From contig CAYSOG010000006.1 of NCBI GenBank assembly GCA_964432675.1, forward strand, positions 1,824-65,823: 64,000 nt of DNA, written 5' to 3'. Each line of letters starts with the position of its first letter. The stretch's first letter is position 1. The notes beneath the pieces were generated by a model. That model saw only the letters and a program-made list of their open reading frames with translations, was not told where the DNA came from and did not search any database. The DNA comes from an uncultured Gammaproteobacteria bacterium (GTDB lineage Bacteria; Patescibacteriota; Microgenomatia; CAYSOG01). Position numbers and translations under genes: made by a program. Shown here piece after piece: positions 40,054 through 60,652 of this stretch.

Positions 40054-40098
40054 GCGCCACGTTCATGCACTTGTGTACTGAACGTGGCGCTTTTTTAT
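40054..40098. terminator. Bidirectional rho-independent terminator
   Basis: GCGCCACGTTCA...TGAACGTGGCGC stem followed by TTTTTTAT, between convergent genes. Confidence 0.65.
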
Positions 40099-42173: not shown

Positions 42174-43310
42174 TTAGCGGAGGTTGTATATTTGGTCGGC
42201 GAGGGTGGTTAGTTCTTGGGTGCCTTGGAGGATATTAATCCAGGCTTGGGGAAAGACCATGCCATTTTTGGCGCCGGCAAGGGCACCGTAGATTGAAGCA
42301 GTGCTGTCGCAGTCACCGCCGAAGTTGATTGTACGGAGCATGCCTTCGACTGGATTTCCCCAATACTTTTGGAACATGAAAATAGTGAATGGATAATTTC
42401 GGGTCACTGCCCAACCGGTACCAAGTTCGCTGTACGCCTCTTCCTCTTCAGCATCACGATTAGCCAAAACCCAAGCTAGCCGGTCGGCCAGCAATACCTT
42501 TTTCCCCTGCTCTTTTGAATATTCGAAACGCTTAGCGACGTTAACGACACTATCCAAAAACTCATCTTTCTCTAAATTGTACAGCAATGCGTATATGGCA
42601 TGCGCTTGGACAACACCGCTTGCAACCGAGCGGCCGTCTAAGTGTGTCATCTGCCCTACTCGCTCGGCAAACGCCAATCCCTCCCGATAATTTCCCTTCG
42701 CATACATATATAACCCTAGAGGTGCCACCTTTAAAGCAGGCGCATTACCAGGGTTTCTTGATTCCACACCAGAATTTTCTGGTGGAATACCGCGCTTGAG
42801 GTTTTCAAAGCCTTCGATGGTTGTTCCACCAAAACTGCCCCAATCGCCGCCGGTTTGTGCAAGGTCTTTGCGCTGTTCGTACACAAAAAGACTATGTTTG
42901 GCGACATTTTGCAGATCTAAACCACGGCTTTCAATAATTGAACGTGCGGTGATAACCGATAACCAAGTATCATCGGTCCACTGCCCTTTTTCTAAATTCG
43001 TGGAAATATATGGAATACGGCCGTTTTCATCGGCCTCAAGAATATTGCCGGCAGTATCTCTTACAAAAAATGGCTTGATCGGCTCGGTGATTGCGCCAAC
43101 ATGTCGGCGGATTTGTTCCCTATCCCAACCTTCAACCGGCATGCCCAAGGTGTCGCCGACTGCACCGCCGATCATTGTCGCGCGATAATGGCCTATCAGC
43201 TCTTTATCAACTAGCTCATTATTTGGGATAATATCTTTAGAACTTCTTTCGGCCATAATTCCCTTTCGCCGCCATTGTACCAGATTTTTGCTATAAAAAA
43301 AGCGCCACAT
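42174..43310 (-). CDS. ADP-ribosylglycohydrolase-family protein
   Basis: 'GAVGDTLGMPVEGW' and downstream Asp-rich metal-site motifs of the DraG/ARH family. Confidence 0.8.
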   Translation of the reverse strand: MWRFFYSKNLVQWRRKGIMAERSSKDIIPNNELVDKELIGHYRATMIGGAVGDTLGMPVEGWDREQIRRHVGAITEPIKPFFVRDTAGNILEADENGRIPYISTNLEKGQWTDDTWLSVITARSIIESRGLDLQNVAKHSLFVYEQRKDLAQTGGDWGSFGGTTIEGFENLKRGIPPENSGVESRNPGNAPALKVAPLGLYMYAKGNYREGLAFAERVGQMTHLDGRSVASGVVQAHAIYALLYNLEKDEFLDSVVNVAKRFEYSKEQGKKVLLADRLAWVLANRDAEEEEAYSELGTGWAVTRNYPFTIFMFQKYWGNPVEGMLRTINFGGDCDSTASIYGALAGAKNGMVFPQAWINILQGTQELTTLADQIYNLR

Positions 43311-43381
43311 TCAGTTCGCCAGCTGGCGAATGAACATGGCGCTCGTGATTTACCTAAGGAATGAATACATACCCTTACGTA

Positions 43382-43615
43382 TCATCCTTTTGGCTTTGCA
43401 ACACCTTGCAATTCCCCTTCTTCCATCTTGTGCAACCGGTCGAGGTGGAACCGTAAGGGGCCATCCTCTGTACTGACCAATGCCATATCGGTTCCGAGGA
43501 ACCGAAGTATTTTCCCCCGGTAATCTGGTACTGTCGGGATATATAGACTCCCCGTAAAAATTCCCACCTCTTCACCAATGGAAAACTGCTTGTCTTTGTA
43601 GGTACTTGTATCCAC
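43382..43615 (-). CDS. Small hypothetical protein (77 aa, GTG start)
   Basis: AGGAAAG RBS upstream. More protein-like than the overlapping alternative frame. Confidence 0.4.
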   Translation of the reverse strand: MDTSTYKDKQFSIGEEVGIFTGSLYIPTVPDYRGKILRFLGTDMALVSTEDGPLRFHLDRLHKMEEGELQGVAKPKG

Positions 43616-43663
43616 GCTACTTCTTTCCTATGCGCAATTAGCACTTTTGTGTTGTATAACTAC

Positions 43664-43984
43664 TTAACAGAAAAGTACATTGCGATCGTCGGTGATGATT
43701 GCCTTAATCTGCCGGTTAATTTCCGTTTTGCGTGCGGTACGCTCCGGTGTGTCATCTTCAGGATAGCATTCGATGTATGCCTTACCGTTCGCCACGTAGA
43801 ATTTGCCACCAAAACCAAAGTCGCCGATAAACCGGAATTCAATAGTCCCAGCCGGAGGTTCATCCGTAACATACTGGACAAACTGGGCCTTTATACTCTC
43901 GGACATTCCAGCCTCAGCGATAAGTAGCGTGGCTACTGCTTCCGCCTGTGCTTCGCTCAAATGGGTCAGATAGGTAAACTGCAA
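43664..43984 (-). CDS. Hypothetical protein (106 aa; TTG start or internal ATG)
   Basis: ORF with balanced composition. No recognisable domain. Confidence 0.4.
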   Translation of the reverse strand: MQFTYLTHLSEAQAEAVATLLIAEAGMSESIKAQFVQYVTDEPPAGTIEFRFIGDFGFGGKFYVANGKAYIECYPEDDTPERTARKTEINRQIKAIITDDRNVLFC

Positions 43985-44008
43985 TGCGAGTGCCCCTTTC
44001 CCAAAACA

Positions 44009-44764
44009 CTACTTCGCGTTCCACAATGCAAGTTCAAGCGGTGAATTTTCATCACCTGGTTGCGTTTGCCGAAAGCGGAAGTAATTTTTGGTACCAGTTT
44101 TTGGGTTTTCAAGCAAGACCATATTTTGGCCAATCGGTAAAACCCAATCTTCGGTTATCTCGTTCTCACTGCCATACTTTCCCCTATACGTGTTATAGGT
44201 AACAGCCAAAGCAACGCCACTTGAGCCGTCGGACATCTTTTTCTGGCGCGCCGTTATACCGGTTTCTTCCCCAGTTGCGGAAACAACTCTTACGGCGTAT
44301 CCGTTCGTTGTTTTGGCAACATCTGGCGGCTTATTTTGGGCCGCAAAGCTTGTAATCGCTGCCTTATCGTTATTCAGCTGCCACCCTTTTATAGATACCG
44401 AACTTTGGGCGGTTAGCGTATGTTTGCTTTCATAGTCAGCAAGTTTCTTCGGGGTATCATTATCAGATGACAACGCCCAAGCGAATAAACCAATGAATAA
44501 GCTCATGACAAGAATTGCCATAACAGTAATACCGGCATACTTGCCAAACCCTTTCAGCAGTTGTATCCGCTGCTGCTTTTTTTGATCGGCTATTTCTGAC
44601 CTGCCCTGGGCGAACGATTTCTGTTCGGTTGCCAGCCGTAGGATAAAATCGGCTTCAACACCGTACACACCGTGTTCCTGTAATTTTATACTGGTACTCT
44701 CTAAGGCCTCAACTTCTTCTTTCGAAAGGCCACAGTCAGTGACGCTAGCAATGACTTGCTGCAC
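44009..44764 (-). CDS. Single-pass membrane protein, paralog A (251 aa)
   Basis: Cytoplasmic helical N-domain, one TM helix and an extracytoplasmic beta-rich domain. Shares 'GWQLNNDKA...KPPD' and the C-terminal 'SPLELALWNAK' with the next ORF. Confidence 0.55.
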   Translation of the reverse strand: MQQVIASVTDCGLSKEEVEALESTSIKLQEHGVYGVEADFILRLATEQKSFAQGRSEIADQKKQQRIQLLKGFGKYAGITVMAILVMSLFIGLFAWALSSDNDTPKKLADYESKHTLTAQSSVSIKGWQLNNDKAAITSFAAQNKPPDVAKTTNGYAVRVVSATGEETGITARQKKMSDGSSGVALAVTYNTYRGKYGSENEITEDWVLPIGQNMVLLENPKTGTKNYFRFRQTQPGDENSPLELALWNAK

Positions 44765-44860
44765 TGCTTCCTCCTTTACACTCGTGTCGTGGCATGAAGC
44801 GATAAAGAAAGCACTCCATACTCTTTATTGTGAGCATGGAGTGCAATGGTAATTACCTCG

Positions 44861-45637
44861 TTACTTCGCGTTCCATAAGGCAATTTCAACAGGTGAATTG
44901 TCGTCACTGTTTGTATTGGTCCGCCGAACGCGCAGATAATTTTTGGTATGCGTGTATGGGTCTTCGACAACAACAGTGTCATGCCCTAATGGCAGCACCC
45001 ATTCTTCCTTTACCAAGGTGAAGGTATCGGTCGACGATGAAGTATATGGCTTTAGGCTTGTGACAACGATTAATTTAACGCCGTTACTGTTATCAGAGCG
45101 AGTGACGGTGTCAAAACGGATAAAGGTCAATGCCCCGGCAACGGTGTGGATATCCTCGTTTGTGCCAACAGTCTTGATCGAATCGGGCGGCTTATTTTCA
45201 GCACGGAATGTGGCAAGATCTGCCTTGTCATTATTAAGCCGCCAACCAGTTAGAGAAATAGTGCTGGTGTTCGTTAAAGTATGGCTTTGTTCGTAGTTGA
45301 GCCTATCATTATAGGTATTTCGGGCTTGCGCATCGGGTGATCCACAGTTACCCCACCAACTGGCCATTCCCCAGATACAAAGCAGGCCAATAACAACTAA
45401 CGGCGTTATCCAAGAAGCTTTTATAATGAGCTTATGGTTTCGTTCCCTTGACTCTTCAGCCCTCACCGACCGGTTTCGGGCATAGGGTTCTTGCTCTATG
45501 GCAAACTTTAAAGCCCAATCAGCTTCAACAGGCCGTACGCCAGCTCTCGCTAATTTCCGGTTTACACTCTTAAAGGCATTGACTTCTTCCGATGTCAAGC
45601 CAAAATCCGGATTAGGATTAGTTGCAAGCCTTGCCAT
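44861..45637 (-). CDS. Single-pass membrane protein, paralog B (258 aa)
   Basis: 'GWRLNNDKA...KPPD' and C-terminal 'SPVEIALWNAK'. Same topology as paralog A. Confidence 0.55.
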   Translation of the reverse strand: MARLATNPNPDFGLTSEEVNAFKSVNRKLARAGVRPVEADWALKFAIEQEPYARNRSVRAEESRERNHKLIIKASWITPLVVIGLLCIWGMASWWGNCGSPDAQARNTYNDRLNYEQSHTLTNTSTISLTGWRLNNDKADLATFRAENKPPDSIKTVGTNEDIHTVAGALTFIRFDTVTRSDNSNGVKLIVVTSLKPYTSSSTDTFTLVKEEWVLPLGHDTVVVEDPYTHTKNYLRVRRTNTNSDDNSPVEIALWNAK

Positions 45638-45793
45638 GATGAAACTCCTTTACGGAATAGGATGTCAAAGTACTCCACCTAAGGTTGATAACCTTAAACG
45701 AATAGCTGCATTATAGAGCGAAAACACTCTGAACACAATACTATGAGGTAGTATCTAGCATGCGGGTTAATTCGTTTCGGAAGGCACACTCTT

Positions 45794-46075
45794 CTAAAAC
45801 CCTTGCAGTAAATCAACCAGGTCTTTAAGGTAGCCCCAGTATGGGTGCATACGATCGCCCATATTAAAGACAATCAGGTCCCCAAGTTCTGGTTGACGAG
45901 TAATAAGGCCCTTATCAAATGTCACCACCCCATTCAGGCTGGTAAATAAGTGGCCGTCATAGAAAAGAAATGGATGGTTTGTGCCATCTTGGCAGACCGC
46001 CATACCATAGCCAGCATACCCAGGATTACTGCCAGGTTGTATTTCGGAAACCTTAGCGACTAAGAGGCCAAACAT
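45794..46075 (-). CDS. Hypothetical protein (93 aa)
   Basis: ORF only. Gly/aromatic-rich. Confidence 0.35.
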   Translation of the reverse strand: MFGLLVAKVSEIQPGSNPGYAGYGMAVCQDGTNHPFLFYDGHLFTSLNGVVTFDKGLITRQPELGDLIVFNMGDRMHPYWGYLKDLVDLLQGF

Positions 46076-46257
46076 GCTTCACTCTCCTCAAGCATACACA
46101 AATTGTAAAAGTACGAAACTGCTTCAGACTTGCTGAACGGTCTTAATTATAGCAATAATTTGCCTTAATTACATCTATAGGCCTTATTTTCTAAGATTGG
46201 ACGAAAAAAGCGAAAATTAGTTGCATAATACCCATTTTTATCGCTATACTAAAAAAG

Positions 46258-46743
46258 ATGGTAAAAAAGGTTGTCCTTCTGGTAGCGGCATTGGCACTTA
46301 TAGCAGTAGCTTATTATGGTATAAAGCAAAGTAAATCGGTTTCAGCGCCGCAAATAATGCAAGTAACACCAGCATCCTCTTCGGTAGCCTCCACTTCTGC
46401 AAGCATTACTCCTTCCGCAAGCTCGAATGGCCTTGCCAATCCAGCTTCGGTAAACTGTGGCAACTTGGGTGGCAAACTGAGTATCCAAACCCGCGGTGAT
46501 GGCGGCCAATATGGCGTGTGTGATTTCGGCAGCGGGTATTCATGCGAAGAATGGGCATTATACCGCGGCGATTGTCCAAAGACCGGTGTTAAGACAACTG
46601 GCTTTGACACCAAGGCCCAAATTTATTGTGCCCAGGTTGGTGGCAAAACACTAGCGGTAGCAAACGCAACATGTACGTTTCCAAACGGTAAGTCATGTCC
46701 TGTGAACGACCTCTTCAATGGCAAGTGCCAAGCAACTCCATAA
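46258..46743 (+). CDS. Secreted DUF333-like (putative haemolysin-like) protein with duplicated Cys-rich module
   Basis: Signal anchor. Two 'CxxxGGK...GVCxF..G..C' modules ('NPASVNCGNLGGK...CEEW..YRGDC'). Confidence 0.6.
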   Translation: MVKKVVLLVAALALIAVAYYGIKQSKSVSAPQIMQVTPASSSVASTSASITPSASSNGLANPASVNCGNLGGKLSIQTRGDGGQYGVCDFGSGYSCEEWALYRGDCPKTGVKTTGFDTKAQIYCAQVGGKTLAVANATCTFPNGKSCPVNDLFNGKCQATP

Positions 46744-46841
46744 CATCTCATCGGATATTCCACTATCTCGAATAACAAAGCGCATTTTTATTCCGAAAAT
46801 TTTTCCAAAAAACACTAACCACTCATCACATCACCAAAAAC

Positions 46842-47093
46842 TTGACACAGCAAGCAAAAACGGCATACAGTGAAAGCAGAGGAAGGAGGTGGATTTCTGT
46901 GCAAAGAACACTCGATCATGTAACCCGATGGGCACTTGTTATTGGCGGCCTACTTTGGGCGTATGAAGGTTTTACGAATACTGACCTTGTCATGCGCACG
47001 TTCGGCAGCGCCGAACAGGTTGTTGATATTATTGTTTTCGGCGGTTCGGCATTATATGTCGCCTACCGAATGGTTAGCCGAAAGAATGGCTAA
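46842..47093 (+). CDS. Small membrane protein, hypothetical
   Basis: 83-aa ORF with two hydrophobic segments. Confidence 0.35.
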   Translation: MTQQAKTAYSESRGRRWISVQRTLDHVTRWALVIGGLLWAYEGFTNTDLVMRTFGSAEQVVDIIVFGGSALYVAYRMVSRKNG

Positions 47094-48336: not shown

Positions 48337-48528
48337 GATTAGATACTACAGATGCAGCGTTGCGGCAACACGGCCGGCAAAAAAACCGCAATGGTAGCCG
48401 ATTGAATAACCAAAGGCATGTGCCCGCTGATGGACGCGCAACCGAAAGGTTGGGTCGATAAGCTTTGCGGCAAAGTGCCTTACGATAGAGCTTCTCATTG
48501 GCGTTTCTCCTTTACGCTTTTGCGAAAC

Positions 48529-48987
48529 TTATTCGGTAAGAGCAACCGCGGCGGCCGCAGGGCCACTACTCGGCCGATGCGGCACAGGCGAACCAAAAGG
48601 ACCGTCGCCACCATCATCGAGTCGAGTTGGCCCGCTTTCCCCCGGCGAATTTGGCGGAGCAGGAATTTGGTCGAACGCAATCTTCAATGCTACGGATATG
48701 CTAAACTCTTGCTCACACGCTTCACAGGTTGCCAGATGGGCATAAAAAGCCTGATAGTCATGTTCCCTACGATGGCTTCGACCGTCGGCAAAGATTTCTG
48801 TCATGGCTTCCATGAGCCAACGCGCCTGTTGGTGTGTTGCCGGCTGCCAATTAAATAGTTGGGCCTGCAATATTCGCCAGCGCCGAATACAAATGGGACA
48901 CTTTACAATATGGTCGTCGAGAAGTTCGATATTGTACCTTATGTGAAATTCCTGCTGAGGGCAAAAATCGAAACCTTGTCTTGCCAT
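48529..48987 (-). CDS. Zinc-finger protein with zf-HC2-like motif (anti-sigma-factor-like) and Pro/Gly-rich tail
   Basis: 'CPICIRRW' plus 'HLATCEAC' (H-x3-C-x2-C). Confidence 0.45.
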   Translation of the reverse strand: MARQGFDFCPQQEFHIRYNIELLDDHIVKCPICIRRWRILQAQLFNWQPATHQQARWLMEAMTEIFADGRSHRREHDYQAFYAHLATCEACEQEFSISVALKIAFDQIPAPPNSPGESGPTRLDDGGDGPFGSPVPHRPSSGPAAAAVALTE

Positions 48988-49188
48988 GGGCTTGTCTTCT
49001 CCCTGCTACTTGTCGCTGCTGTAGAAATTAAAGTGCTTATAGTACTAGCTCAACCTTTATTCGTAGGGTTAAACTATGGACATTATAACAGAGAGACACT
49101 CTTGGGTCAATAACTATAGGATGTAAAATCTTGCAATGCAACAGTTGTAGCCTGAAACATTGTAAAAGATAGATGGTAATTTTCCATA

Positions 49189-49223
49189 GAAAAAGGGCGG
49201 TTGTCTTGTAAGACAACCGCCCT
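49189..49223 (-). terminator. Rho-independent terminator (GGGCGGTTGTCTT-gta-AGACAACCGCCC) for the high-GC gene
   Basis: Perfect 12-13-bp stem with a T5 run on the minus strand. Confidence 0.65.
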
Positions 49224-49273
49224 GGGTTGGTGTCCGCCATGGTGGCGAACGGGTTTCGTTGAACGGGCCGAGG

Positions 49274-50050
49274 CTATCCGCGACCGCCGCGCTGGCGGTT
49301 TCTGTACTCGGCGTCGCGAGCCGATCTCTCGGCTTGCTGCTGGCGCCGCTCCGGTGGCGCACCCCGGTGGTTGCGCGGGTCTGTGGCCCGGCAGTCTCGG
49401 AGATGCGTGGCCAGTAGCGGGAGCAGCCGGCGAATCTCGGCCTGCTTGGGCCTGCTCTTGGTGGCGCCGTCGATTTCCTCCTGGCTAAGCCAGGGAAACT
49501 CCGACTGCTCGATCTTCTCGACATTTCTGAGAAGGGCGAGCGCGCCAATCAGAAGCAGCTGCTGCGGCTTTCGCATGAGCCCCGCCTCCTCGGCGAGGTT
49601 CTCGAAATGCGGGAGATACGTATCCCGCTGGGCCGACATGCAGGCCAAGAAGAGCTGCCAAGCGGCCTCGCGCGCCGCGGCGTAATCCGGTTCGAGGTCG
49701 TCCAGGATCATATCCCGGATCCGCTCCAGTTCCGCCTTGAGTTCGACCCGGCGTGGCTCGGCGATCCCATCCCAGCCGGTAGCAAATTGCGCGGTCTGGA
49801 ACTGCCGCCGGGCGGCCTCGTCGATCGGGATCCGCGGCTGATGCTGCTGGTCGGTGCCGGACTGCTCGTCGGTAGCGCAACCGAGAGACTTGCTGGCCTC
49901 GCGGATGACCCGGTCGATGGTCCCCTCCACGGGGGTCTCGGTGACGGTCTGGTCGGCGGTCTCGACGACGGTCTGGTCGGCGGTCTCGACGACGGGCTTC
50001 TGGTCGGCGGTGGCTTCGGTGCTATCAACGGTCTTGGCGGTCTTGGTCAT
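49274..50050 (-). CDS. High-GC hypothetical protein with tandem 8-aa repeats (start at 'MTKTAK')
   Basis: Protein-like frame among several GC-driven overlapping ORFs. N-terminal VETADQTV repeats and a helical C-terminal domain. Own terminator. Confidence 0.5.
   Translation of the reverse strand: MTKTAKTVDSTEATADQKPVVETADQTVVETADQTVTETPVEGTIDRVIREASKSLGCATDEQSGTDQQHQPRIPIDEAARRQFQTAQFATGWDGIAEPRRVELKAELERIRDMILDDLEPDYAAAREAAWQLFLACMSAQRDTYLPHFENLAEEAGLMRKPQQLLLIGALALLRNVEKIEQSEFPWLSQEEIDGATKSRPKQAEIRRLLPLLATHLRDCRATDPRNHRGAPPERRQQQAERSARDAEYRNRQRGGRG
49946..50014. repeat. Tandem direct repeat, 24-nt unit GGTCTGGTCGGCGGTCTCGACGAC x2 plus a partial third copy
   Basis: Read directly from the sequence. 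Encodes the VETADQTV repeats of the 49274 gene. Confidence 0.8.
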
Positions 50051-50197
50051 CTGGCCTTCTCCTGTACAATGAACCTGGCAACACGTGCTAAACGGTAGCA
50101 CACCGCGCCCAAAATGGGCGAAAGACTCTTGCCACAGTTTCATCCGGAGGCCCACGGGCCCGCCGAAAAAAACTAACAAGCCGATGACTGGGCGCCG

Positions 50198-50425
50198 TCA
50201 AAACGACGGCGCCTCCGACATGAACTCAAGGAACTTGCGGTCCGCTTCGGTAAGGACTGGGTCGACAAAAAGCCGACCATTGTCCTTTCCACAGCGGGGC
50301 AATGTCCCTCGGGTCGCCGGCGCCTCGGCCGCAGAAAGCCCACCTTCGTGGACCTTACCGCAGCTCAGGCAGGTTACGTCGAATTCCGTTGTGTTCGGAA
50401 TCACCGGTCTTGCCGCAACTACCAT
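50198..50425 (-). CDS. Small Cys-containing protein (75 aa), high GC
   Basis: 'CLSCGKVHEGG...PRCGKDNG' putative zinc-ribbon. Confidence 0.4.
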   Translation of the reverse strand: MVVAARPVIPNTTEFDVTCLSCGKVHEGGLSAAEAPATRGTLPRCGKDNGRLFVDPVLTEADRKFLEFMSEAPSF

Positions 50426-50894
50426 GTATTCCTCCTAAAAACTAGCCTCTCCGCTGAGGCTTCCATTACAAGGACTTACCATTCGTAAATCCCGATAATA
50501 GAAACCTCACCGTTTTAGCGTTGCTTAAAGGAAGTATTGTTCAACGATAATAATAGTAATGTGCAAATGCTTTTGGGTTTTTACGCCCTCAAGCGTTTGT
50601 TTGCAATTTGCGGCAAAAATAATTCGCAAATCCAAACAATTGTTGTGAAGTATATCACACTACAGGCCTTTTGTCAAGTATCTATAGGTCATACTATATA
50701 AATGTATAACCCTGCATAGATGCTATACACGCCATGTGTACCAGGATCAATAAAAGACATATGCCCTACTTCGCCGGACTACTTATACCATATGTATATA
50801 TAACTATAAGTTATGTATAGGCATTGCCTAGACACAGATTTCTGCATATTGTCATCCTGGCTTAATTGCATTATTTATGTTAGATAAAGCCAAT

Positions 50895-50931
50895 AAAAAA
50901 GGGCCGCGGTATTCATACCGCGGCCCAAAAA
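50895..50931. terminator. Bidirectional terminator GGGCCGCGGTA-ttca-TACCGCGGCCC flanked by A/T runs, downstream of the helicase
   Basis: Perfect 11-bp stem. A6 upstream and A5 downstream on the plus strand. Confidence 0.7.
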
Positions 50932-50972
50932 CCCTTGCAGTTTATATTGGTACTGCAAAAACGACAAATAGC

Positions 50973-53939
50973 CTACTTAGCGGAAGGCTGTACCGCTTTT
51001 TGGTACACTTCCCGCAACAGGCCAATCTTCTTTACTTTGTGGCCGCTTTTAAGGCCCTCTTGGTTAACAAATCCCCAATACGTCTTCCCCCTTTCAGGCG
51101 TTGCCACTTCCGAAGCGGTGGCATCGAATTCGAAAAGCATGCCGTATGAAATTTCATCAATCGGCACAACCTTGTCGCCTTCGAACTGGTACTGCCCCGC
51201 TCCCGGCCAATGTTCGGCGTGGAACTGCGCAAGCCATGCGTCGTATTCGGCCTGCTTTTCCGCTTCCTCTTGGGCCAAGAGCTCAGCAAATTCGCGATCG
51301 AACTGCTCCTGTTTCCGTTGCAACAGCGCTTGCTCCAACCGAACCTGTTCGGCTTCGGCAGCAGCTTGCCGCCTTCGCGATAGCTCTTGCGCTTCAGCCT
51401 GCATCCGAGCCAGTTGAGCTTCTCGCTGCGCTTGCAGCGCCACTTCGCGGTTTGCTTCATAGGTTGGCCGGTTAGTGTCGATGAACTCGCTGGCAGCCGA
51501 AAGTCGCATCTCAGCGTCGGCCGGCCACTGCTCATCGAGCACCTTCAGTCGAAGGGCTTCAAGATCTTGGTAAAACGTGTAAGCCCTTTGGTCATCTTCA
51601 GCAAGTCCCCACATCGCCAAATCATTGCGAATTAACCACAGCACACCAGTAATACTATCAATCAAAGCCAGCTGGCTTCGCTGCGCTTCGGTTTGGTAAC
51701 GCCAGCGTTCCGATTCCGGAACTTCATCGCGCGTACACAAAACTTCCTCATATGCCACTTCTTGGCCAAGCACTGTAGTCGTGCGAGATTTGGTCCATTC
51801 TACCCGCATAAAACCGGGGGGTTTTGGATTGCCCTCGCGAACACTGACCATATGCGGGGCAACTTCAAGCAGCCACTCGACCTCGACTTTTTGGCAGCCA
51901 CGGGCAAAATTGCGTTTGCCTTTTGGCGTTGTGACACCTTGAATACCAGCACAGACAATAATCTGCGGTGGCGTATGAAACAACACGCTATCACGCGAAA
52001 TATACAACGCGGTGTCTTCCTCACGCGACAATGACCAAATGCTACGCGGCTTGGCGCCGGCCCAGGTGTAGCTGAACCTGCCATTTGAAACGGCCAAGTT
52101 CTGCATTAAACCAGCTGCCACTGCCTTGCCGATCACCGCAACTTGGCTCTTTTCGGTGTCAGTTAGTTCCCAACGGTCGACTGCCTTTTGGTAGCCTACC
52201 GATGTGACCTCGATCCCCATCAGCATAATAATATCCATAAGTTGCCGACGGATTTTGAGGATTTCATCAAGGCTTCGATGGTTCAAAAAGTGGTCACGTG
52301 CCCAATCATGGTCATAACCCGCGTCTGCGTATTCGTTCATGACGTTTAATACGGTTAGGAAATCGCTGTCATGAACAGACAAGCGTTGCCGCCACATGTC
52401 TGCATCAGCTTCATGGTCACGCGGCCTGGTAAAAAGCCGGTTGACCGAAAGGCTTGCGGCAATGGTGCAGATTTCTGCAATACAGCCATGCTTTTCGGCT
52501 TCCAAGATCATACGGCCGATGGTTGGTTCAACTGGTAGTTTTGCCAATTGCTGGCCGACATCGGTCAACGTATTATCAGCGTCAACCGCCCCAAGTGCCC
52601 GAAGTGTTTCAAGTGCGTTATGGAGCGCTTGCTTTGGCGGCGAGTCGATGAACTCGAACTCCTCGACATCAGTAATGCCAAGGCTCAGCATCTTCAACAC
52701 CACACTCGACAGTTCGCTGCGCACAATCTCGGGTACGGTAAACTCATCTGCATGGTCATACTCGGCCTCTGTAATAAGCCGGTAACAGTTGCCTTCATCG
52801 GTCCGCCCTGCCCGGCCGGCACGTTGGCCCATACCAGACTTCGAATGCAATATGGTCTGCAAGCTGCTAATGCCGCTGTGCGGATCAAACTGCATTTGGC
52901 GGATAAGGCATGAGTCGACCACATCAACCGCAGTTTGCGGTGTGATAGATGTTTCAAGCACGTTGGTGCCGATAATCACCCGACGGCGGTTTGAAGGAAT
53001 AAAGACGCGCTGCTGTTCGTCCGGGCTCATGTCGCCATGAACTGGAATAAGCTCGGCGTCGATATTAAGCCGTTCGAGAAATTCAATTGTCTTATTAATC
53101 CAGGCAAGGCCCGGCATAAAGACCATGATATCCCGTTTGGCTCTTTGGCTGGCAATAATTTGACTTACTTTGTATGCCGCCAGTGCTTCAACCGGAACCG
53201 GTTTGTCCGGATCGATTAGCCCCAGGAACTGGTCTCGAGCCTTATGATGTTCGCCCGGCTGAAGGTAATGGACCGTGACGGGAAACTGTTTCCCAACAAC
53301 CTGGATGATTGGCGCATTGTCGAAAAACGCCGAGAACTTTTCGGCATTAATGGTGGCCGACATGATAATAAGTTTCAAGTCAGGCCGCAACCGTAATGCT
53401 CGCTTCGCCAGGCCAATGGCAAAATCAGTATCGACGTTGCGTTCGTGCGCTTCGTCGAACCCGATAATGCCGTATTGATAGAACCCTTGGTCATGAATGG
53501 CTTCCTGAAGCAGGATACCATCGGTCATAAACTTAATTTTCGTGCCAACGCTTGTTTCATCGTCGAAGCGAATTTGGTAGCCGACTTCGTTGCCAATCCT
53601 ACTACCTAGCTGCCTGGCGACAAATTGGGCAACGGTAATTGCCGCAATGCGCCTGGGCTGGGTGATGCCAATCCTGCCAGTTTGAAGCATGTCTGCGTTG
53701 TACAGGAATTGTGGAACCTGGGTTGTCTTACCGCTGCCAGTTTCGGCAACCAAGATGGTTACCTGGTTCTGCCGAATGGCCTCGACAATTTCGTCTTTGT
53801 GCTGGCCAACGGGCAATTGAAGGTTCACGTTTTCGTTCCTCACGAGCAGGGGCCCTGGCGTTGCCAGGAATTGCCCACCCTGCTCCGACCACTTTTTCAG
53901 GTCTTGTCCGAAGTCTTTCCGTAAAGGGCAACGGACCAT
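50973..53939 (-). CDS. DEAH-box ATP-dependent helicase, HrpA/HrpB-like, with C-terminal OB/coiled-coil extension
   Basis: 'VAETGSGKTTQVPQF' (motif I), 'GFDEAHER' (DEAH) and helicase-associated HA2/OB-like region. Long Gln/Ala/Glu-rich coiled coil near the C-terminus. Confidence 0.85.
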   Translation of the reverse strand: MVRCPLRKDFGQDLKKWSEQGGQFLATPGPLLVRNENVNLQLPVGQHKDEIVEAIRQNQVTILVAETGSGKTTQVPQFLYNADMLQTGRIGITQPRRIAAITVAQFVARQLGSRIGNEVGYQIRFDDETSVGTKIKFMTDGILLQEAIHDQGFYQYGIIGFDEAHERNVDTDFAIGLAKRALRLRPDLKLIIMSATINAEKFSAFFDNAPIIQVVGKQFPVTVHYLQPGEHHKARDQFLGLIDPDKPVPVEALAAYKVSQIIASQRAKRDIMVFMPGLAWINKTIEFLERLNIDAELIPVHGDMSPDEQQRVFIPSNRRRVIIGTNVLETSITPQTAVDVVDSCLIRQMQFDPHSGISSLQTILHSKSGMGQRAGRAGRTDEGNCYRLITEAEYDHADEFTVPEIVRSELSSVVLKMLSLGITDVEEFEFIDSPPKQALHNALETLRALGAVDADNTLTDVGQQLAKLPVEPTIGRMILEAEKHGCIAEICTIAASLSVNRLFTRPRDHEADADMWRQRLSVHDSDFLTVLNVMNEYADAGYDHDWARDHFLNHRSLDEILKIRRQLMDIIMLMGIEVTSVGYQKAVDRWELTDTEKSQVAVIGKAVAAGLMQNLAVSNGRFSYTWAGAKPRSIWSLSREEDTALYISRDSVLFHTPPQIIVCAGIQGVTTPKGKRNFARGCQKVEVEWLLEVAPHMVSVREGNPKPPGFMRVEWTKSRTTTVLGQEVAYEEVLCTRDEVPESERWRYQTEAQRSQLALIDSITGVLWLIRNDLAMWGLAEDDQRAYTFYQDLEALRLKVLDEQWPADAEMRLSAASEFIDTNRPTYEANREVALQAQREAQLARMQAEAQELSRRRQAAAEAEQVRLEQALLQRKQEQFDREFAELLAQEEAEKQAEYDAWLAQFHAEHWPGAGQYQFEGDKVVPIDEISYGMLFEFDATASEVATPERGKTYWGFVNQEGLKSGHKVKKIGLLREVYQKAVQPSAK

Positions 53940-54106
53940 TTGGTTGAGCAGGGCTGCTCGATTACAGAACCGATCGGGCGCTAATTTTTAATAGCCCATC
54001 AGCTTTTTTCCTTTCTTTTTATTTTCATTGCTTGTTAAGGTACATTTGGAAGCTAAACTTCCCTAAAACTCACTTTCGCCTTTATATAGAGCGACAATGA
54101 GCTTGA

Positions 54107-54138
54107 GGAAAGCCACGTCTGTGTAAACCAGACGTGGC
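54107..54138 (-). terminator. Hairpin GCCACGTCTG-tgtaaac-CAGACGTGGC downstream of the 54152 gene
   Basis: Perfect 10-bp stem. Separates the helicase from the ORFan array. Confidence 0.5.
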
Positions 54139-54151
54139 GAAAAATGTCTAT

Positions 54152-54751
54152 CTACTGATTGATGTTAACACCCAGTTGGGCTTCTGCTGGCACGCCTTGT
54201 GCCAAGAGCGCCTGAAGGTATTCCGAACTCGGCAGTTTGTTGATATATTCGGCGAACTTAGCCGGGTACTCCCGACGCGCCCGTTCATACAGGATTTCAA
54301 TGACCCGAGAATCGACAAGCCCATTAAGGTAGTTCCGGCCTGGAGTAAATGGTGCCTGCCGATGGTTTCGCTTGACGAGCTGTCGAGCACCCTGGTCAAA
54401 GTGCTTCACAACATACGCCCGCATGATAGCAACGTATTGGCCGCCTTCCATGTTTGGCAACGGAACCAAAAGGTACCGGTCTGCAATGCGGAGTGCATGG
54501 GCATAGTCCGCATCAAGTCGCAACCTATTGATTAGCTGCTTGCGTTCAACCAACGACTCAGCGAACGGTCGCCGTAAAGCTATGACTGGACCATAGTTCA
54601 GCCGCCTGTTCAGCCACAATAGCTGCCGCCCGAACCAGCGATTTACCCATCGAAACTTCCACCGAAGGGCGAATGAGGCAATGATAAGGAAAAAGGCGAA
54701 AACCGCCATTACGGTCAACACCTGCCCAAAGACTGTTACTACTTCTTCCAT
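54152..54751 (-). CDS. Hypothetical membrane-anchored protein (199 aa)
   Basis: N-terminal TM helix. Arg-rich. Confidence 0.45.
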   Translation of the reverse strand: MEEVVTVFGQVLTVMAVFAFFLIIASFALRWKFRWVNRWFGRQLLWLNRRLNYGPVIALRRPFAESLVERKQLINRLRLDADYAHALRIADRYLLVPLPNMEGGQYVAIMRAYVVKHFDQGARQLVKRNHRQAPFTPGRNYLNGLVDSRVIEILYERARREYPAKFAEYINKLPSSEYLQALLAQGVPAEAQLGVNINQ

Positions 54752-54781
54752 CTGCTCTCCCCTTTCTCTTGCTTGGTAAGG

Positions 54782-55561
54782 TTACGCCGGCACCGGGTCT
54801 GCGAGCCGAACAAGGCGAAAATTAAACCCTTTGCCGTAGGGCGTCGCATGCAAAACTATTCGGGAACGAGCTGGTATGGAACTATGCGGGTCGATCGACA
54901 CCCAAAATGCGGCGGTAAACAATCTAGAATGTTCCTTGAAATAGAGTAGTCGATTATGAATGTAAGACGCTACCTCCGGATCACCTTCGATATTATCTCT
55001 CTCAATAACAACAAAGGCTTGGCCGTTACCACCTGGATAGTAGTAATAGTTATTATCAACAGAAACTGTCACTTCACGAACGCACTTGCGTTCGATCAAT
55101 TCCACCGCCCGACCGTGCCCGATGGACATATATTGCAGTTCACCGTGTAGCATTACCGGTTCTATAAAGTCTTCAGGGCACCTGCCCTCACTAACGCGCA
55201 TAATGCATCCACTTTCCACAATGAAGTCGCAGTATTGCGCGATATAGGAAATCGGGAGATGGTCGTTTGCTATTTGGCATGTTAGGCCCATTTTCCTTGC
55301 TCGAACCTCACCTACTAATTCCATGCAGCCTGAATTTTCAGAGAGGACGACAAAGAGCTCATCGTCATAAAGCTCATGGGATATGTACTGAAGCTGCTCT
55401 CCGGATAAATCACCAGCTCCGAGAAATTCACCCTTCTCATTGAACCATCGTCCCCGCGAAATCCAGGGGTCAGAGCGTTCAACTTGTCCGCCTCGTAAGC
55501 CGAACAAGCCTGCTGCTCCTATATTCAGACCGCTATACATACCTTTGACAAGACGGGACAT
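54782..55561 (-). CDS. Hypothetical protein (about 260 aa from 'MSRLVKG'; ORF extends to 55720)
   Basis: AGGAGG RBS 6 nt upstream of the ATG at 55559-55561. Contains 'NYYYYPGGNG'. Confidence 0.45.
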   Translation of the reverse strand: MSRLVKGMYSGLNIGAAGLFGLRGGQVERSDPWISRGRWFNEKGEFLGAGDLSGEQLQYISHELYDDELFVVLSENSGCMELVGEVRARKMGLTCQIANDHLPISYIAQYCDFIVESGCIMRVSEGRCPEDFIEPVMLHGELQYMSIGHGRAVELIERKCVREVTVSVDNNYYYYPGGNGQAFVVIERDNIEGDPEVASYIHNRLLYFKEHSRLFTAAFWVSIDPHSSIPARSRIVLHATPYGKGFNFRLVRLADPVPA

Positions 55562-55756
55562 GATCTGCCTCCTCTTTTCGCTTTGCTGCTTTCCATCAAT
55601 TTTGTAGATTTTTAATGTACCATTTGGACACGCTTCGTGCCCAAACTGAAGGCTATTCCCTTCCGCAAACGTTTTTATACGCTTAAGGCATAAAAATGCT
55701 TGAGGAAAGGCCCCGTCCATCAGCCAGTTGGTGAATGAACGGGGATGAAAATTACT

Positions 55757-55942
55757 CTACAGAAGATTAAGAAGATCAAAGAGCCCAAGGGAGTTCCAAT
55801 ACTTTAATTTCCTATCCCAGTAGGCAGCCACGGCTAAGTGGAAATGTCTATCGTGCTCCAGCTGTTCACGCCGCGCTTCCAATGCTTCCAATAAGCGCTC
55901 AGCACTCCAGAATAAATAGATGAACTTCCAAAGCTGCTTCAT
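55757..55942 (-). CDS. Small hypothetical protein (61 aa)
   Basis: Overlaps the upstream gene stop. Helical. Confidence 0.3.
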   Translation of the reverse strand: MKQLWKFIYLFWSAERLLEALEARREQLEHDRHFHLAVAAYWDRKLKYWNSLGLFDLLNLL

Positions 55943-56274
55943 CGAATATCGCCGCTTGGCGCAAGTGAGTTGATGTAGGTTGCAATCGTAAGGAGCGCAG
56001 TATTAATGGGTACGGAATGGTTGCTTCTTACTATGCATGCTTCGGACAACGTGTTCAATATTGTTTTTTGTTGAACAGCATTCAATTTGGTATCGAGATT
56101 ATTGCAAAGCCCAAGGAGATTTGACGTAATTAAACTTCCAAGGTCTTCTAATGTTCCAAGTTGTGCAACCGCTCTAATATTCGGGAACAACTCCCCAGCC
56201 CTGGAAATTATATTCCCTAATTCTTGAGCAAATTCTCGAACCGTCATAGGTTCATTAGCGAGTTTCTGGACCAT
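55939..56274 (-). CDS. Hypothetical protein (111 aa), possible HTH
   Basis: Strong RBS AAAAAGGAGG. 'MTVREFAQELG' helix-turn-helix-like segment. Confidence 0.4.
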   Translation of the reverse strand: MVQKLANEPMTVREFAQELGNIISRAGELFPNIRAVAQLGTLEDLGSLITSNLLGLCNNLDTKLNAVQQKTILNTLSEACIVRSNHSVPINTALLTIATYINSLAPSGDIR

Positions 56275-56418
56275 TTTTCCTCCTTTTTGTTCCGCTTCGT
56301 TTTTCTGTAGGTATTTGAATGTGCAATTTGAAGCATACCGCTTCCTGAAACCCTCTAGGCTGCTGGCCTAAAAAGTTTGAGGAATGGGCGGGACGGCTTT
56401 TTAAGCCGTCCCGCAAAT

Positions 56419-56670
56419 TTACAGGTTAGATAATACTTGTTGCGCCCTTACGTCGGGGCAGCATGTTAAAAGGTACAGCACATATTTCTGGCCTCTGTGC
56501 CATGTACGCTTACTTTTTGGCCAAAGGCCTTGTTCGCGAGCTTTGTCGTAGTACGCAGCCACTACTTCGACCATGGCGATGATCTGCTCCCTCTTTTCAG
56601 GATGGAGCAAGATCCAGCTTTTGACGAAGTCAACGACATCGTTCAATGTTTTAACTTGCGGTTGTTCCAT
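56419..56670 (-). CDS. Hypothetical protein (83 aa)
   Basis: ORF in a co-directional array. Confidence 0.4.
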   Translation of the reverse strand: MEQPQVKTLNDVVDFVKSWILLHPEKREQIIAMVEVVAAYYDKAREQGLWPKSKRTWHRGQKYVLYLLTCCPDVRAQQVLSNL

Positions 56671-56687
56671 TGGCTTATTTCCTTGGC

Positions 56688-57155
56688 TTAGGATGAAAAG
56701 TCCTCTGGTTCTGAAATCCGCAGGCTATACAACGGCCGGGGATTGCCATCGCTCAGCTTAAAACGGCGAAAGAGCGTGTAAAGTGCCGGCAAATCGTAAT
56801 CGCCTTGCTGGTAGCGCGCATAGCGCGTTGCAATTGTATTACCGTCTGCCTTAACAACCGTCACCACGAGGGCATCGGTGAACCGGTCGACATGGATACG
56901 ATACTCACCACCTAGACGTTCTTCGCCCGGTAGGTTATCATTGACAATAATCGATAAGAGCCCCTCGCAGTCGACATAACGCAAGGTTTTTGCGTCGAAG
57001 ACTTCGCAACGACTGCCGAGATAAACCCCGTATCGCCGTTCTTCTTCCTTAATAACCTCGTAGGCCGTGTCAAATATAAGTTTGCCAAACAAGATTTCGG
57101 CAAACTTGCCTTTGGCCACCATCTGTTCAGTTTCGAGTGCTACCGGTGTTACCAC
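56688..57155 (-). CDS. Hypothetical protein (155 aa)
   Basis: ORF in a co-directional array. Confidence 0.45.
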   Translation of the reverse strand: MVTPVALETEQMVAKGKFAEILFGKLIFDTAYEVIKEEERRYGVYLGSRCEVFDAKTLRYVDCEGLLSIIVNDNLPGEERLGGEYRIHVDRFTDALVVTVVKADGNTIATRYARYQQGDYDLPALYTLFRRFKLSDGNPRPLYSLRISEPEDFSS

Positions 57156-57158
57156 CTT

Positions 57159-57512
57159 TTACCTCCGTGATGCATGGTTGTTTAAGCGAGACAATATTGG
57201 TGCAATCCACCATGGCAACGGTTCATGTTGCAACCTGTCAACCCAGCTGGCAATCGCCCAAAGGGTTGCGATCACAATGACAAACATGCTGACTGCAACT
57301 GCAAGGTTTGTTCCCGCCGGACCCGGCGTTATAGATGTTAGGCGCCAGTGCAAAAGGTGCGTTACACCTTCATATGCCACTATAATGCCAATATTGATAC
57401 AACCTGCTAATAGTATGACAAGCTGGAACCTCTTGAACCCAAAGACTAGCCGGATAATTATCATACAAAAGATGACGCTGATCGTTATGATTACACCCAA
57501 AAGATACTGCAT
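57159..57512 (-). CDS. Hypothetical polytopic membrane protein (117 aa)
   Basis: Three or four hydrophobic helices. Confidence 0.45.
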   Translation of the reverse strand: MQYLLGVIITISVIFCMIIIRLVFGFKRFQLVILLAGCINIGIIVAYEGVTHLLHWRLTSITPGPAGTNLAVAVSMFVIVIATLWAIASWVDRLQHEPLPWWIAPILSRLNNHASRR

Positions 57513-57706
57513 GACTGCCTCCGTTTGCGCTTCCTGAGCTTTTAACCTGTAATGGTAAGGTGCGATATGATGAAGTCAAAATGGAAAACGATTGCTCGTT
57601 CACTTTCATTTTAACTTCTTCCTGCAATTCTCAAATTTATTTTTGGGAATTATAGGAATGAGGCAGCGCCGAAACGGCGCTGCCCAAATGTACTCAAAAG
57701 AAAAGG

Positions 57707-58039
57707 TTAAGCAACAGCAGCTTGGATTATACCAATCCGCTGCCGGTGCGCCTCGATCCAAACCTTGCCAATCGCTTCAGCCAAGTCTATGACCGGACTG
57801 TAGTCAACATGCTGCTGCATGCGGCAATCGGTCAAGATTGCCGCTATGGTGTTGACAACGATATCTCCCGAGTAATCCTGGAGCGTGCCGTTGACCAACG
57901 CTTTCTGGTAGACTGCAAGGTTCTTGGCCGCCGAACTGATCCGGTTGGCCAATTTAACTTGACCAACTTGAGCCAATTCCTCCGCCCGGTTGAAAAGCCA
58001 GGCAAGGCCATTTTCGACAATCGCTTCTTCTACCTTCAC
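57707..58039 (-). CDS. Hypothetical protein (110 aa)
   Basis: ORF in a co-directional array. Confidence 0.4.
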   Translation of the reverse strand: MKVEEAIVENGLAWLFNRAEELAQVGQVKLANRISSAAKNLAVYQKALVNGTLQDYSGDIVVNTIAAILTDCRMQQHVDYSPVIDLAEAIGKVWIEAHRQRIGIIQAAVA

Positions 58040-58054
58040 ACTACTTCTCCTCTT

Positions 58055-58270
58055 CTAGATAAACTCGAGGTAGTACCGTGTTTTTTGGTCGCGGCGCTGC
58101 CGTTCTTCTTGGCATTCGCTGCAGTCATCCTGATGGACTGGCATGGCGTCGAGCTTACCACTCGCTGCTCGAGCTTTGCAGCGAGCCTCAAGTTTGCTGC
58201 CAGCCGTTGCCACCCAAACGTGACCATTTAAGCAAGCCACATTGTAGTGGACTTCGGTATTAGTGAGCAT
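58055..58270 (-). CDS. Small Cys/His-rich protein (about 71 aa from 'MLTNTEVHY')
   Basis: 'VACLNGH...CKAR...DDCSECQEE' putative zinc-binding. Confidence 0.35.
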   Translation of the reverse strand: MLTNTEVHYNVACLNGHVWVATAGSKLEARCKARAASGKLDAMPVHQDDCSECQEERQRRDQKTRYYLEFI

Positions 58271-58271
58271 C

Positions 58272-58646: not shown

Positions 58647-58665
58647 TTGCTACTCCTTCTTAGCA

Positions 58666-60316: not shown

Positions 60317-60652
60317 ATGGCAACGGCTACGATCGACCAACTGGCGAATGAAGTAATGATTGGGATCAGTGGCGTGCTTATGCACGACATCAGAACGACG
60401 GTTTCCGACGCTCGAGTATCGGGCGACCAACCGACGGAAGAAGGTGCATTTTCGACGCTCGACCACCTTGAGAAAATCCATCATGCGATCGTTGTTTTTT
60501 TGAGCTTTCCTGGCAGGCGCAGCCGCGAGCAAGCTGAGAATCTATCGGGGCTCCTTGAGGGTATGGAGGACTACTCCCCCCTCGAGCCAGTTAAGGATGC
60601 AGTCGTCGAGTTACGTAAGTCGTTGCTCGACCTGCTGGCAAACGCTTCATGA
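60317..60652 (+). CDS. Hypothetical protein (111 aa)
   Basis: First ORF of the plus-strand array. Confidence 0.4.
   Translation: MATATIDQLANEVMIGISGVLMHDIRTTVSDARVSGDQPTEEGAFSTLDHLEKIHHAIVVFLSFPGRRSREQAENLSGLLEGMEDYSPLEPVKDAVVELRKSLLDLLANAS

Follow-up and report, generated by a model that had tools for sequence, protein, structure and literature searches.

A tandem pair of paralogous type-II membrane proteins encoded in an ORFan-rich bacterial locus

Introduction

What might be the role of two paralogous membrane proteins that are encoded in tandem within a cluster of ORFans? The question is raised by the region 43382–46075 of the window, i.e. the whole stretch of 64,000 nucleotides analysed, to which all coordinates given below refer unless another contig is named. 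A sequence-only reading of this DNA saw in the pair signalling or anti-sigma-like membrane proteins or, alternatively, surface receptors or phage-exclusion proteins, embedded in an accessory patch of otherwise housekeeping DNA. The organization of the cluster, the sequence relationships and predicted structure of the two proteins and the explanations that they allow are described here.

Organization of the gene cluster

All five open reading frames of the cluster were verified on the minus strand at the positions given by the sequence-only reading, each with a Shine-Dalgarno site upstream (5/5). The first of these co-directional genes, orf93 (45794..46075), codes for a small, soluble and acidic protein of 93 aa; its Shine-Dalgarno sequence GAGGAG is located at 46084–46089, and its exact product corresponds to a called gene at NCBI. 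It is followed by the gene for paralogue B (P0001; 44861..45637; 258 aa), with the Shine-Dalgarno sequence AAGGAG at 45645–45650 and, further in the 5' direction, a candidate −10 box TATAAT on the same strand (45710..45715), which, together with TTGTGT situated 17 nt upstream of it, may represent a promoter as read from the sequence. The gene for paralogue A (P0002; 44009..44764; 251 aa) uses a GTG start and is preceded by AAGGAGG at 44770–44776. Only 24 nt past its end starts orf106 (43664..43984), encoding a small, acidic and soluble protein of 106 aa, which is probably co-transcribed with paralogue A; its start is ambiguous, with an ATG at codon 27 as the alternative to the TTG at 43984, and the exact 106-aa product is absent from the public protein collection. 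The final gene, orf77 (43382..43615), specifies a small soluble protein of 77 aa and is also a called gene at NCBI.

Two hairpins, both on the minus strand, are found in this arrangement. The one between the paralogues (44811..44844) consists of a perfect 13-bp stem with an 8-nt loop, followed by UUUCUUUAU; the RNA folds at −28.6 kcal/mol (z = −6.0; equally stable shuffles 0/200), and its sequence—unchanged on two independent short contigs—looks like a terminator or an attenuator. The other, at the end of the cluster, is an intrinsic terminator (43293..43344) with a stem of ~20 bp (43300–43344) and a U7 tract (43293–43299), the 101-nt stretch folding at −43.1 kcal/mol (z = −7.5). The Shine-Dalgarno sites, the short gaps, the hairpin between the paralogues and the closing terminator thus define the transcription units. 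No RNA family of Rfam was matched at E ≤ 1 over 43200–46300.

Concerning the protein families, the five products yielded only noise in Pfam, NCBIfam, PHROGs and PADLOC (E ≥ 0.02), with nothing better than E ≥ 0.08 in PHROGs and no match at all in PADLOC. For orf93, orf106 and orf77 there were no matches in Pfam, PHROG, PADLOC, NCBIfam or among the PDB sequences, so that the description of the three small flanking frames as ORFans was borne out.

Genomic setting

In addition to ORFans, the neighbourhood contains, according to Pfam, genes for DUF333, DUF378 and MOSC proteins as well as for an ADP-ribosylglycohydrolase, the last one located directly downstream of the cluster; the DUF333 and DUF378 neighbours are envelope or membrane proteins, too. 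The accessory patch proposed by the sequence-only reading is an understatement of this setting: unassignable genes continue from about 43 kb to the end of the window. The base composition is clearly atypical from about 48.5 kb on, and the codon usage of both paralogues lies inside the host range, at its low end. The only H-x3-C-x2-C motif in the vicinity occurs in another open reading frame (48529–48987).

Neither a DNA-binding protein nor a sigma factor, a kinase or any other output domain is encoded by the nearby genes, and no protein with Sigma70_r2/r4 was found among 20 open reading frames scanned over 37–55 kb. Neither an integrase nor a phage structural gene was seen around the cluster, and flanking direct repeats were not found in any convincing form. 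The closest YchF loci elsewhere (55% identity) share the gene order YchF-S6-SSB-S18 and contain nothing matching 41–49 kb. The host belongs to a poorly sampled lineage that is probably Patescibacteria-like.

Relationship between the two paralogues

Paralogues A and B can be aligned end to end with 99 identical positions out of 252 (39%; E = 8e-54), and their paralogy in both halves, as proposed earlier, is evident from the identities of 37% in the N-terminal domain and 47% in the ectodomain core. Both soluble halves are thus conserved; the transmembrane (TM) segment (24%) and the linker are poorly kept (21–24% for the two). The codon identity amounts to 0.52, 0.62 and 0.38 at positions 1, 2 and 3, respectively, with pN of 0.42 versus a saturated pS of 0.745; the saturated third and best conserved second positions indicate an old duplication with both copies under purifying selection. 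Both frames are real genes. The exact product of paralogue A is also present on Logan contigs from SRR9179560 and SRR9179562, the two extra contigs being 100% identical to the window.

Of the motifs quoted in the sequence-only reading, the C-terminal one, NSP[LV]E[LI]ALWNAK, is exact at both C-termini, whereas the other two need correction. The common N-terminal core is EEV.A..S...KL...GV..VEAD..L..A.EQ, because the preceding SK is found only in the 251-aa protein, the 258-aa one having TS; in the ectodomain, LNNDKA and F.A.NKPPD are separated by four residues, not three.

Homologues and family

The sole relative outside the window is an uncharacterised protein of 285 aa, P0004, retrieved with a profile at E = 5e-5 among 1.84 billion representative proteins (BLASTP E = 1e-8). 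It originates from a low-GC metagenome-assembled genome (MAG) unrelated to the host (GCA_943356485.1, contig CALRFD010000001.1) and is collinear with the paralogues from the cytoplasmic helices through the TM helix into the ectodomain, the last exhibiting 31–37% identity over the aligned columns. The alignments revealed three motifs common to A, B and P0004—HTL-x3-S-x2-S-x2-GW, E[ED]WVL and LW-x2-K—as well as six residues of the N-terminal module that are invariant in all three members (E17, A21, D40, Q49, A53 and R56). P0004 differs from the paralogues in being a single copy, in missing the LNNDKA.... helix and in having different neighbours: its gene, at 10001–10858 of that contig, is followed from 10860, i.e. 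with a one-nucleotide offset past the annotated end, by one for a soluble protein of 198 aa, and beside it there are also two gene pairs, one of the bpMoxR AAA+/VWA type and the other a ParE-like toxin-antitoxin system. Neither orf77 nor orf106 is related to the 198-aa protein; no partner is conserved across the two lineages.

No other relatives were revealed by alignment scans of GTDB genomes, IMG/VR and JGI metagenomes or by tblastn against phage and plasmid collections (INPHARED, PLSDB), and, when 5.8e9 proteins were searched through a word index, paralogue B, P0004 and the three-member profile retrieved just the queries themselves. Among the PDB sequences, nothing was found below E = 0.06 with either the single queries or the three-member profile. 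P0003, a eukaryotic BED-zinc-finger repeat protein returned by the same profile search as P0004, was rejected as a spurious match, since the similarity was scattered over 8 weak repeat stretches and the architecture is not a common one.

Collinear architecture together with the three motifs was set as the mark of a new family, and all of this is shared by A, B and P0004. Judged by their sequences, the three proteins are a very rare unnamed family, anciently duplicated in the present host. The sequence-only reading had named a housekeeping family assignment along with universal conservation as the observation that would speak against it; no housekeeping family and no broad conservation were found.

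Topology and predicted structure

Each paralogue has a single hydrophobic segment, the Kyte-Doolittle maxima over 19 residues in the two proteins being 2.22 at residues 70–88 and 2.41 at residues 77–95. The counts of K and R on the N-side versus the C-side of this segment are 6 versus 1 and 5 versus 3, and one TM helix with a basic N-side flank is present in all three members of the family; this arrangement places the N-terminus inside and the C-terminus outside. In paralogue B, a two-helix cytoplasmic domain (residues ~11–69) precedes the TM segment (~70–95; 45353–45430 of the window), a stalk helix (~101–119) and an α+β ectodomain (~120–258); the same architecture is seen in paralogue A, where the TM segment covers residues ~75–97 (44474–44542). 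The AlphaFold2 models, built from three sequences only and of moderate confidence (full-length pLDDT of 62; ectodomain pLDDT of 72 and pTM of 0.68), consist of a helical hairpin at 16–74, the TM helix, a helix at 101–119 and then 7–8 strands. Hydropathy, the positive-inside rule and AlphaFold2 thus agree with the order proposed earlier of a helical domain in the cytoplasm, a single TM helix and an external, mostly β domain. The paralogues are type-II single-pass proteins with a cytoplasmic two-helix module of ~60 residues, a TM helix, a stalk helix and an α+β ectodomain of ~140 residues.

A search with Foldseek—both models against PDB and the ectodomain also against BFVD—gave no match at E ≤ 1e-3. 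The retinol-binding lipocalin, NTF2-like, cystatin and CdiI folds, which were the weak top matches, were rejected (TM < 0.3, rmsd > 11 Å). As far as the ALWNAK motif is concerned, it forms the final β-strand of the modelled ectodomain, and its counterpart in P0004, LWQVK, is followed by eight further residues; both features argue against a terminal sorting signal.

Discussion

The explanation favoured here, albeit tentatively and at somewhat less than an even chance, is that of a lineage-restricted envelope pair coupling the ectodomain to the conserved cytoplasmic module, in the manner of a membrane-tethered sensor or adaptor. Among the known systems, the ECF anti-sigma factors (RsiW/zf-HC2, RsgI) resemble the pair in being N-in single-pass proteins with a helical domain right before the TM helix and a presumed signal-receiving ectodomain. 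That the paralogues are genuine ECF anti-sigma factors is nevertheless very improbable: although a small cytoplasmic helical domain joined to an extracytoplasmic one is the general anti-sigma layout, neither zf-HC2 and RsgI_N nor any other anti-sigma domain of Pfam was matched at E ≤ 1, the N-terminal domains do not contain the zinc-binding H-x3-C-x2-C motif, and a co-transcribed sigma factor or, indeed, any sigma-70 r2/r4 protein among the 20 scanned frames is missing. The anti-sigma suggestion of the sequence-only reading is, in this respect, not supported. By analogy, the pair may still work like an anti-sigma factor by tethering a partner to the membrane, without belonging to those families.

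The pair can also be compared with PilN/PilO (GspL/GspM), the alignment proteins of type IV pili and type II secretion machines, which are likewise tandem paralogous bitopic proteins with a helix after the TM segment and then a compact α/β periplasmic domain; known pairs of this kind heterodimerise. The cytoplasmic domain of the paralogues is, however, much longer (about 70 aa), they have no match to the PilN (PF05137) or PilO (PF04350) family of Pfam, and genes for pilM, pilP/Q, a pilin or a secretion ATPase are not adjacent. PilN/PilO chains or the ferredoxin-like fold were not among the Foldseek matches in PDB either, a fold test weakened by the moderate confidence of the models. With RodZ, the pair shares the domain order and topology (cytoplasmic HTH, TM helix and β-rich C-terminal domain in RodZ) but gives no match to HTH_25 or RodZ_C (DUF4115) at a Pfam E ≤ 1; moreover, RodZ is conserved and single-copy, whereas the pair is duplicated, lineage-restricted and has no cell-shape genes in its context.

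It is possible, if on the doubtful side, that both proteins have a purely structural or adhesive role at the surface, their ectodomain binding parts of the cell wall, the S-layer or a host cell and their N-terminal part serving only as a signal anchor, with no share in signalling. The ectodomain is indeed the most conserved part (47% between A and B, 31–37% to P0004), the DUF333 and DUF378 envelope proteins are encoded next door, and the YchF identity and local gene order resemble those of Kerfeldbacteria/Patescibacteria MAGs; Patescibacteria-like genomes abound in lineage-specific surface proteins, and such a function, if true, would be relevant to an episymbiotic Patescibacteria-like cell. 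On the other hand, a helical module of ~60 residues with residues invariant in 3/3 members is not expected of a plain anchor, and the Pfam search gave no sign of adhesin-type repeats, of domains that bind the cell wall or of sortase signals. The opposite extreme—spurious or decaying frames without function—could be suggested by the near absence of public homologues, but it is scarcely credible and, for the two paralogues, effectively refuted: they are intact with strong Shine-Dalgarno sites, diverge over the codon positions as is typical of selected coding sequences, have a collinear homologue in an unrelated genome and yield a compact ectodomain model. For the small frames, orf106 above all, it may still hold.

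It is unlikely that the genes are carried as cargo by a mobile or foreign element, with products acting in superinfection exclusion, anti-phage defence or conflict between cells, even though the surroundings would suit this explanation. The cluster adjoins an ORFan block, 15 kb or more in length, in which GC3 and codon usage are atypical, the ADP-ribosylglycohydrolase gene follows directly downstream, P0004 is encoded beside bpMoxR AAA+/VWA and ParE-like toxin-antitoxin pairs, and the family is extremely patchy, being confined to two unrelated genomes (GC of 0.45 and 0.38). Phage-encoded superinfection exclusion proteins of the lactococcal Sie2009 and HK97 gp15 types are small, single-pass membrane proteins of patchy distribution as well and occur in ORFan-rich DNA. 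Against this stand the absence of PADLOC and PHROG matches for every cluster protein, the lack of an integrase, phage structural genes, flanking direct repeats and prophage neighbours, the absence of relatives in IMG/VR, INPHARED, PLSDB and BFVD, the codon usage of the paralogues within the host range and a duplication that is ancient and kept in place. The phage-exclusion idea of the sequence-only reading is thus not supported.

Returning to the sensor or adaptor explanation, paralogues A and B would cooperate at the envelope, presumably by forming a hetero-oligomer, so that whatever the ectodomain binds outside would be physically coupled to the cytoplasmic helical module, which in turn would tether or release a soluble partner. 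For this role, the foremost candidates would be the small, acidic and co-transcribed downstream proteins orf106 and orf77 and, in the case of P0004, the 198-aa protein that is translationally coupled to it. An unequal dosage, with B above A, would be due to the hairpin between the two genes. That the cytoplasmic module is more than an anchor is suggested by the collinearity of P0004 across both halves, although it could be simply structural. A bolder version, considered quite improbable, would see in the pair and P0004 a new family with perhaps a new fold of the ectodomain, functioning as a surface receptor or transducer specific to ultra-small, Patescibacteria-like bacteria—which might, for instance, sense or bind a host cell and pass this on to partners in the cytoplasm via the conserved two-helix module—or as a new membrane-based conflict module.

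It should be pointed out that genes without a functional link are frequent in poorly sampled bacteria and that the pair, having no bearing on any long-standing open question, mainly shows the extent of the unannotated, lineage-specific space of envelope proteins. It nonetheless offers a compact, testable object for structural work. If the mechanism outlined above is true, a new sequence family, possibly with a new ectodomain fold, would perform membrane-tethered coupling in bacteria for which the biology of the envelope and the interaction with the host are almost uncharted.

Organization of the cluster and relatedness of its paralogues

The cluster comprises five ORFs, all of them in one direction on the minus strand, two paralogues with three small flankers as described in the sequence-only reading: orf93 (46075-45794, 93 aa), paralogue B (45637-44861, 258 aa), paralogue A (44764-44009, 251 aa), orf106 (43984-43664, 106 aa) and orf77 (43615-43382, 77 aa). 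A Shine-Dalgarno sequence precedes each ORF (AAGGAGG for A, AAGGAG for B and GAGGAG for orf93). Of the five products, those of 93, 258, 251 and 77 aa appear in the public record as called genes, whereas the one of exactly 106 aa does not, so that the start codon of orf106 is uncertain.

The paralogues align end to end (99/252 identical, E=8e-54), identity being highest in the ectodomain core (47%), lower in the cytoplasmic module (37%) and lowest in the TM segment and linker (21-24%), which bears out the proposed paralogy of both halves and shows that both soluble halves are constrained. The motifs quoted in that reading are present, apart from two small slips—the N-terminal core common to A and B is EEV.A..S...KL...GV..VEAD..L..A.EQ, rather than SKEEV, and the spacing from LNNDKA to F.A.NKPPD is four residues, where three had been given. 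The codon identities (0.52, 0.62 and 0.38 at positions 1, 2 and 3), together with pN of 0.42 and a saturated pS of 0.745, rule out a recent repeat or chance ORFs and point to an old duplication with purifying selection on both copies.

Concerning transcription, a TATAAT box with TTGTGT 17 nt upstream can be read from the sequence ahead of B on the minus strand. Between B and A lies a perfect 13-bp hairpin followed by UUUCUUUAU (44844-44811, minus strand; fold energy -28.6 kcal/mol, z=-6.0), and the cluster is closed by a ~20-bp hairpin followed by U7 (43344-43293, minus strand; z=-7.5), with no more than 24 nt between A and orf106 and 48 nt between orf106 and orf77. It is likely that orf93 and B each form a unit of their own and that attenuated read-through leads on into a third, A-orf106-orf77; an Rfam search of the cluster region found no element. 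It should be noted that the terminator hairpin closing the cluster (43300-43344, minus) and the one overlapping the ychF 3' end (40054-40096, plus) are both strong and have nearly the same stem, GCGCCAC(A/G)TTCA...TGAA(C/T)GTGGCGC. A T-run comes next in each case, and the two may be copies of one terminator element that is repeated.

Topology and structure models

Each paralogue has one strongly hydrophobic stretch (B, residues 70-88; A, residues 77-95; Kyte-Doolittle 19-residue means 2.2-2.4), the N-side flank of which is basic in both (K+R of 6 vs 1 and 5 vs 3, N-side vs C-side), so that an N-in/C-out orientation is predicted. AlphaFold2, supplied with the three-sequence family alignment, yielded a full-length model of B (pLDDT 62), in which helices 16-31 and 37-74 continue into a TM helix at 78-95, beyond which come helix 101-119 and a domain of mostly beta structure. 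The ectodomain-only model (pLDDT 71.8, pTM 0.68) consists of two helices and seven to eight antiparallel strands, the final one being the 'EIALWNAK' motif. The hydropathy, the basic flank and the models all agree with the layout suggested from the sequence, i.e. a cytoplasmic helical domain, a TM helix and an external beta domain.

In Foldseek searches, PDB was queried with both models and BFVD with that of the ectodomain, and neither gave anything at E<=1e-3; the best matches—lipocalin, NTF2-like, cystatin and CdiI chains—were rejected (E~0.1-1, TM<0.3, rmsd above 11 A). Since the model rests on three sequences only, the claim is limited to this, that no known fold could be assigned to the predicted structure, and a new fold is not claimed.

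Homologues and the second locus

With the five cluster proteins, Pfam, NCBIfam, PHROGs and PADLOC gave nothing better than E=0.02, and PDB sequence searches gave no match. A word-indexed search of 5.8 billion proteins for relatives of the paralogues recovered the query alone. When the A+B profile was run as an HMM, exhaustively, against 1.84 billion cluster representatives, four proteins came back: A, B, a 285-aa protein (P0004; E=5e-5) and a eukaryotic BED-finger repeat protein, the last rejected as a relative because its matches are multiple, weak and in repeats. Using the alignments to scan GTDB genomes, IMG/VR and JGI metagenomes added no relatives, and none of the A/B family was found in phage and plasmid collections. 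One homologue outside the window among about 15 billion proteins is unusually few, even allowing for sparse sampling.

P0004 originates from a different organism, MAG GCA_943356485.1, and is collinear with A and B. The alignment begins in the cytoplasmic helices, takes in a TM helix that P0004 has as well (residues 89-107) and extends as far as the ectodomain does, with the motifs HTL..S..S..GW, EEWVL and LW..K in common. Its locus (L001; GC 0.38 vs 0.45 in the window) carries a single copy, and just one nt separates its annotated end (10858) from the start of a 198-aa soluble ORF (10860-11456, plus strand); this ORF has a degenerate Nudix-like box (E-x7-R-A-C-L-E-E-L-G-I) and no Pfam match. 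A divergent bpMoxR AAA+ and VWA pair is located upstream and a ParE-like toxin with a 96-aa putative antitoxin downstream; other than P0004 itself, the 20-kb locus bears no resemblance to the window.

As for the host, its best YchF match (55%, among 185,579 species representatives searched) comes from Candidatus Kerfeldbacteria MAGs, which have the same YchF-S6-SSB-S18 order and a few more genes in common with it, and nothing in common with the window at 41-49 kb. Beyond the window, the A/B locus is represented only by two short contigs, which match the window at 100% identity. With no close sampled relative of the host, part of the 'ORFan' status of the cluster reflects sparse sampling.

Genomic setting

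To the left of the cluster are S6-SSB-S18, YchF, a MOSC protein and, immediately downstream of the cluster, an ADP-ribosylglycohydrolase (42174-43259, minus strand; Pfam E=1e-57, weak Tri1/DraG-like NCBIfam matches). The listed ATG of the latter (43310) falls inside the terminator, so that the true start is probably the ATG at 43259 (MAERSSKD...); the gene appears to have its own promoter, its start lying after the cluster terminator. To the right, two small envelope genes (46258-47093, plus strand) run divergently from the cluster. The product of one is secreted, has a signal or anchor at its N-terminus and contains DUF333 twice; that of the other is a membrane protein with DUF378. The codon usage of A and B (GC3 0.46-0.47, score 0.03-0.04) falls at the lower limit of what the host shows and is not clearly foreign.

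The block at ~48500-64000 has an elevated GC3 of 0.55-0.80 and a codon usage departing from the 1-41 kb core; from ~48.5 kb to the window end, one of the 20 scanned ORFs is recognisable, a 988-aa DEAH/HrpA-like helicase (50973-53939) without relatives in IMG/VR. Possible explanations for the block are a foreign island, a mobile element of unknown kind and a chimeric join in the assembly. In a 152-aa ORF (48529-48987, minus), 'HLATCEACEQEF' forms the H-x3-C-x2-C pattern that zf-HC2 anti-sigma factors typically have; the ORF has a Pro/Gly/Ala-rich C-terminus and no Pfam match, and a sigma-factor gene is not recognisable beside it. A 301-aa ORF (49274-50179, minus; GC 0.65 and GC3 0.80 vs a genome GC of about 0.43-0.45) carries a 24-nt tandem repeat (49930-50001) encoding VETADQTV repeats and has no Pfam or PHROG match; overlapping ORFs are numerous there, in all frames.

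Possible function

A and B are two conserved type-II bitopic proteins, each combining a cytoplasmic two-helix module with a surface alpha+beta domain. Tentatively, with somewhat less than even confidence in the mechanism as a whole, we propose that they would act together at the envelope, coupling ectodomain binding to whether a soluble partner in the cytoplasm is tethered or released. The small acidic proteins, probably encoded on the same transcript, would be the best candidates for this partner, and the hairpin between the paralogues would keep the dosage of B above that of A. The main support is the ~60-residue cytoplasmic domain, conserved across homologues only 25% identical, which is not expected of a plain signal anchor; the presence, in both lineages, of a gene for a small soluble protein close behind the family gene supports it further. 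Its main weakness is that these downstream proteins are unrelated between the two lineages and that no output domain is evident. The leading rival, that A and B are purely structural or adhesive surface proteins, is rather unlikely.

The ORFan-rich and conflict-gene-rich neighbourhoods would suit cargo of a mobile element, or an exclusion or conflict function, but a search around the cluster for an integrase, phage genes and bounding direct repeats found none, and we consider such cargo or such a function improbable; the phage-exclusion protein suggested earlier finds no backing either in PHROGs and PADLOC, which gave no matches, or in nearby phage genes, of which there are none. A new-fold surface receptor or transducer, or a new conflict module, is a slightly more distant prospect still. 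Anti-sigma factors, RodZ and PilN/PilO have a layout like that of A and B, but the testable features of these systems beyond the layout are lacking in the pair; true anti-sigma factors are very improbable, and non-functional ORFs are the least credible reading of all.

No striking mechanism is implied by the pair. Patescibacteria-like genomes commonly contain lineage-specific membrane ORFans of this sort, and A and B are best described as a new sequence family of very narrow distribution, yet of an ordinary protein kind, the single-pass envelope protein.
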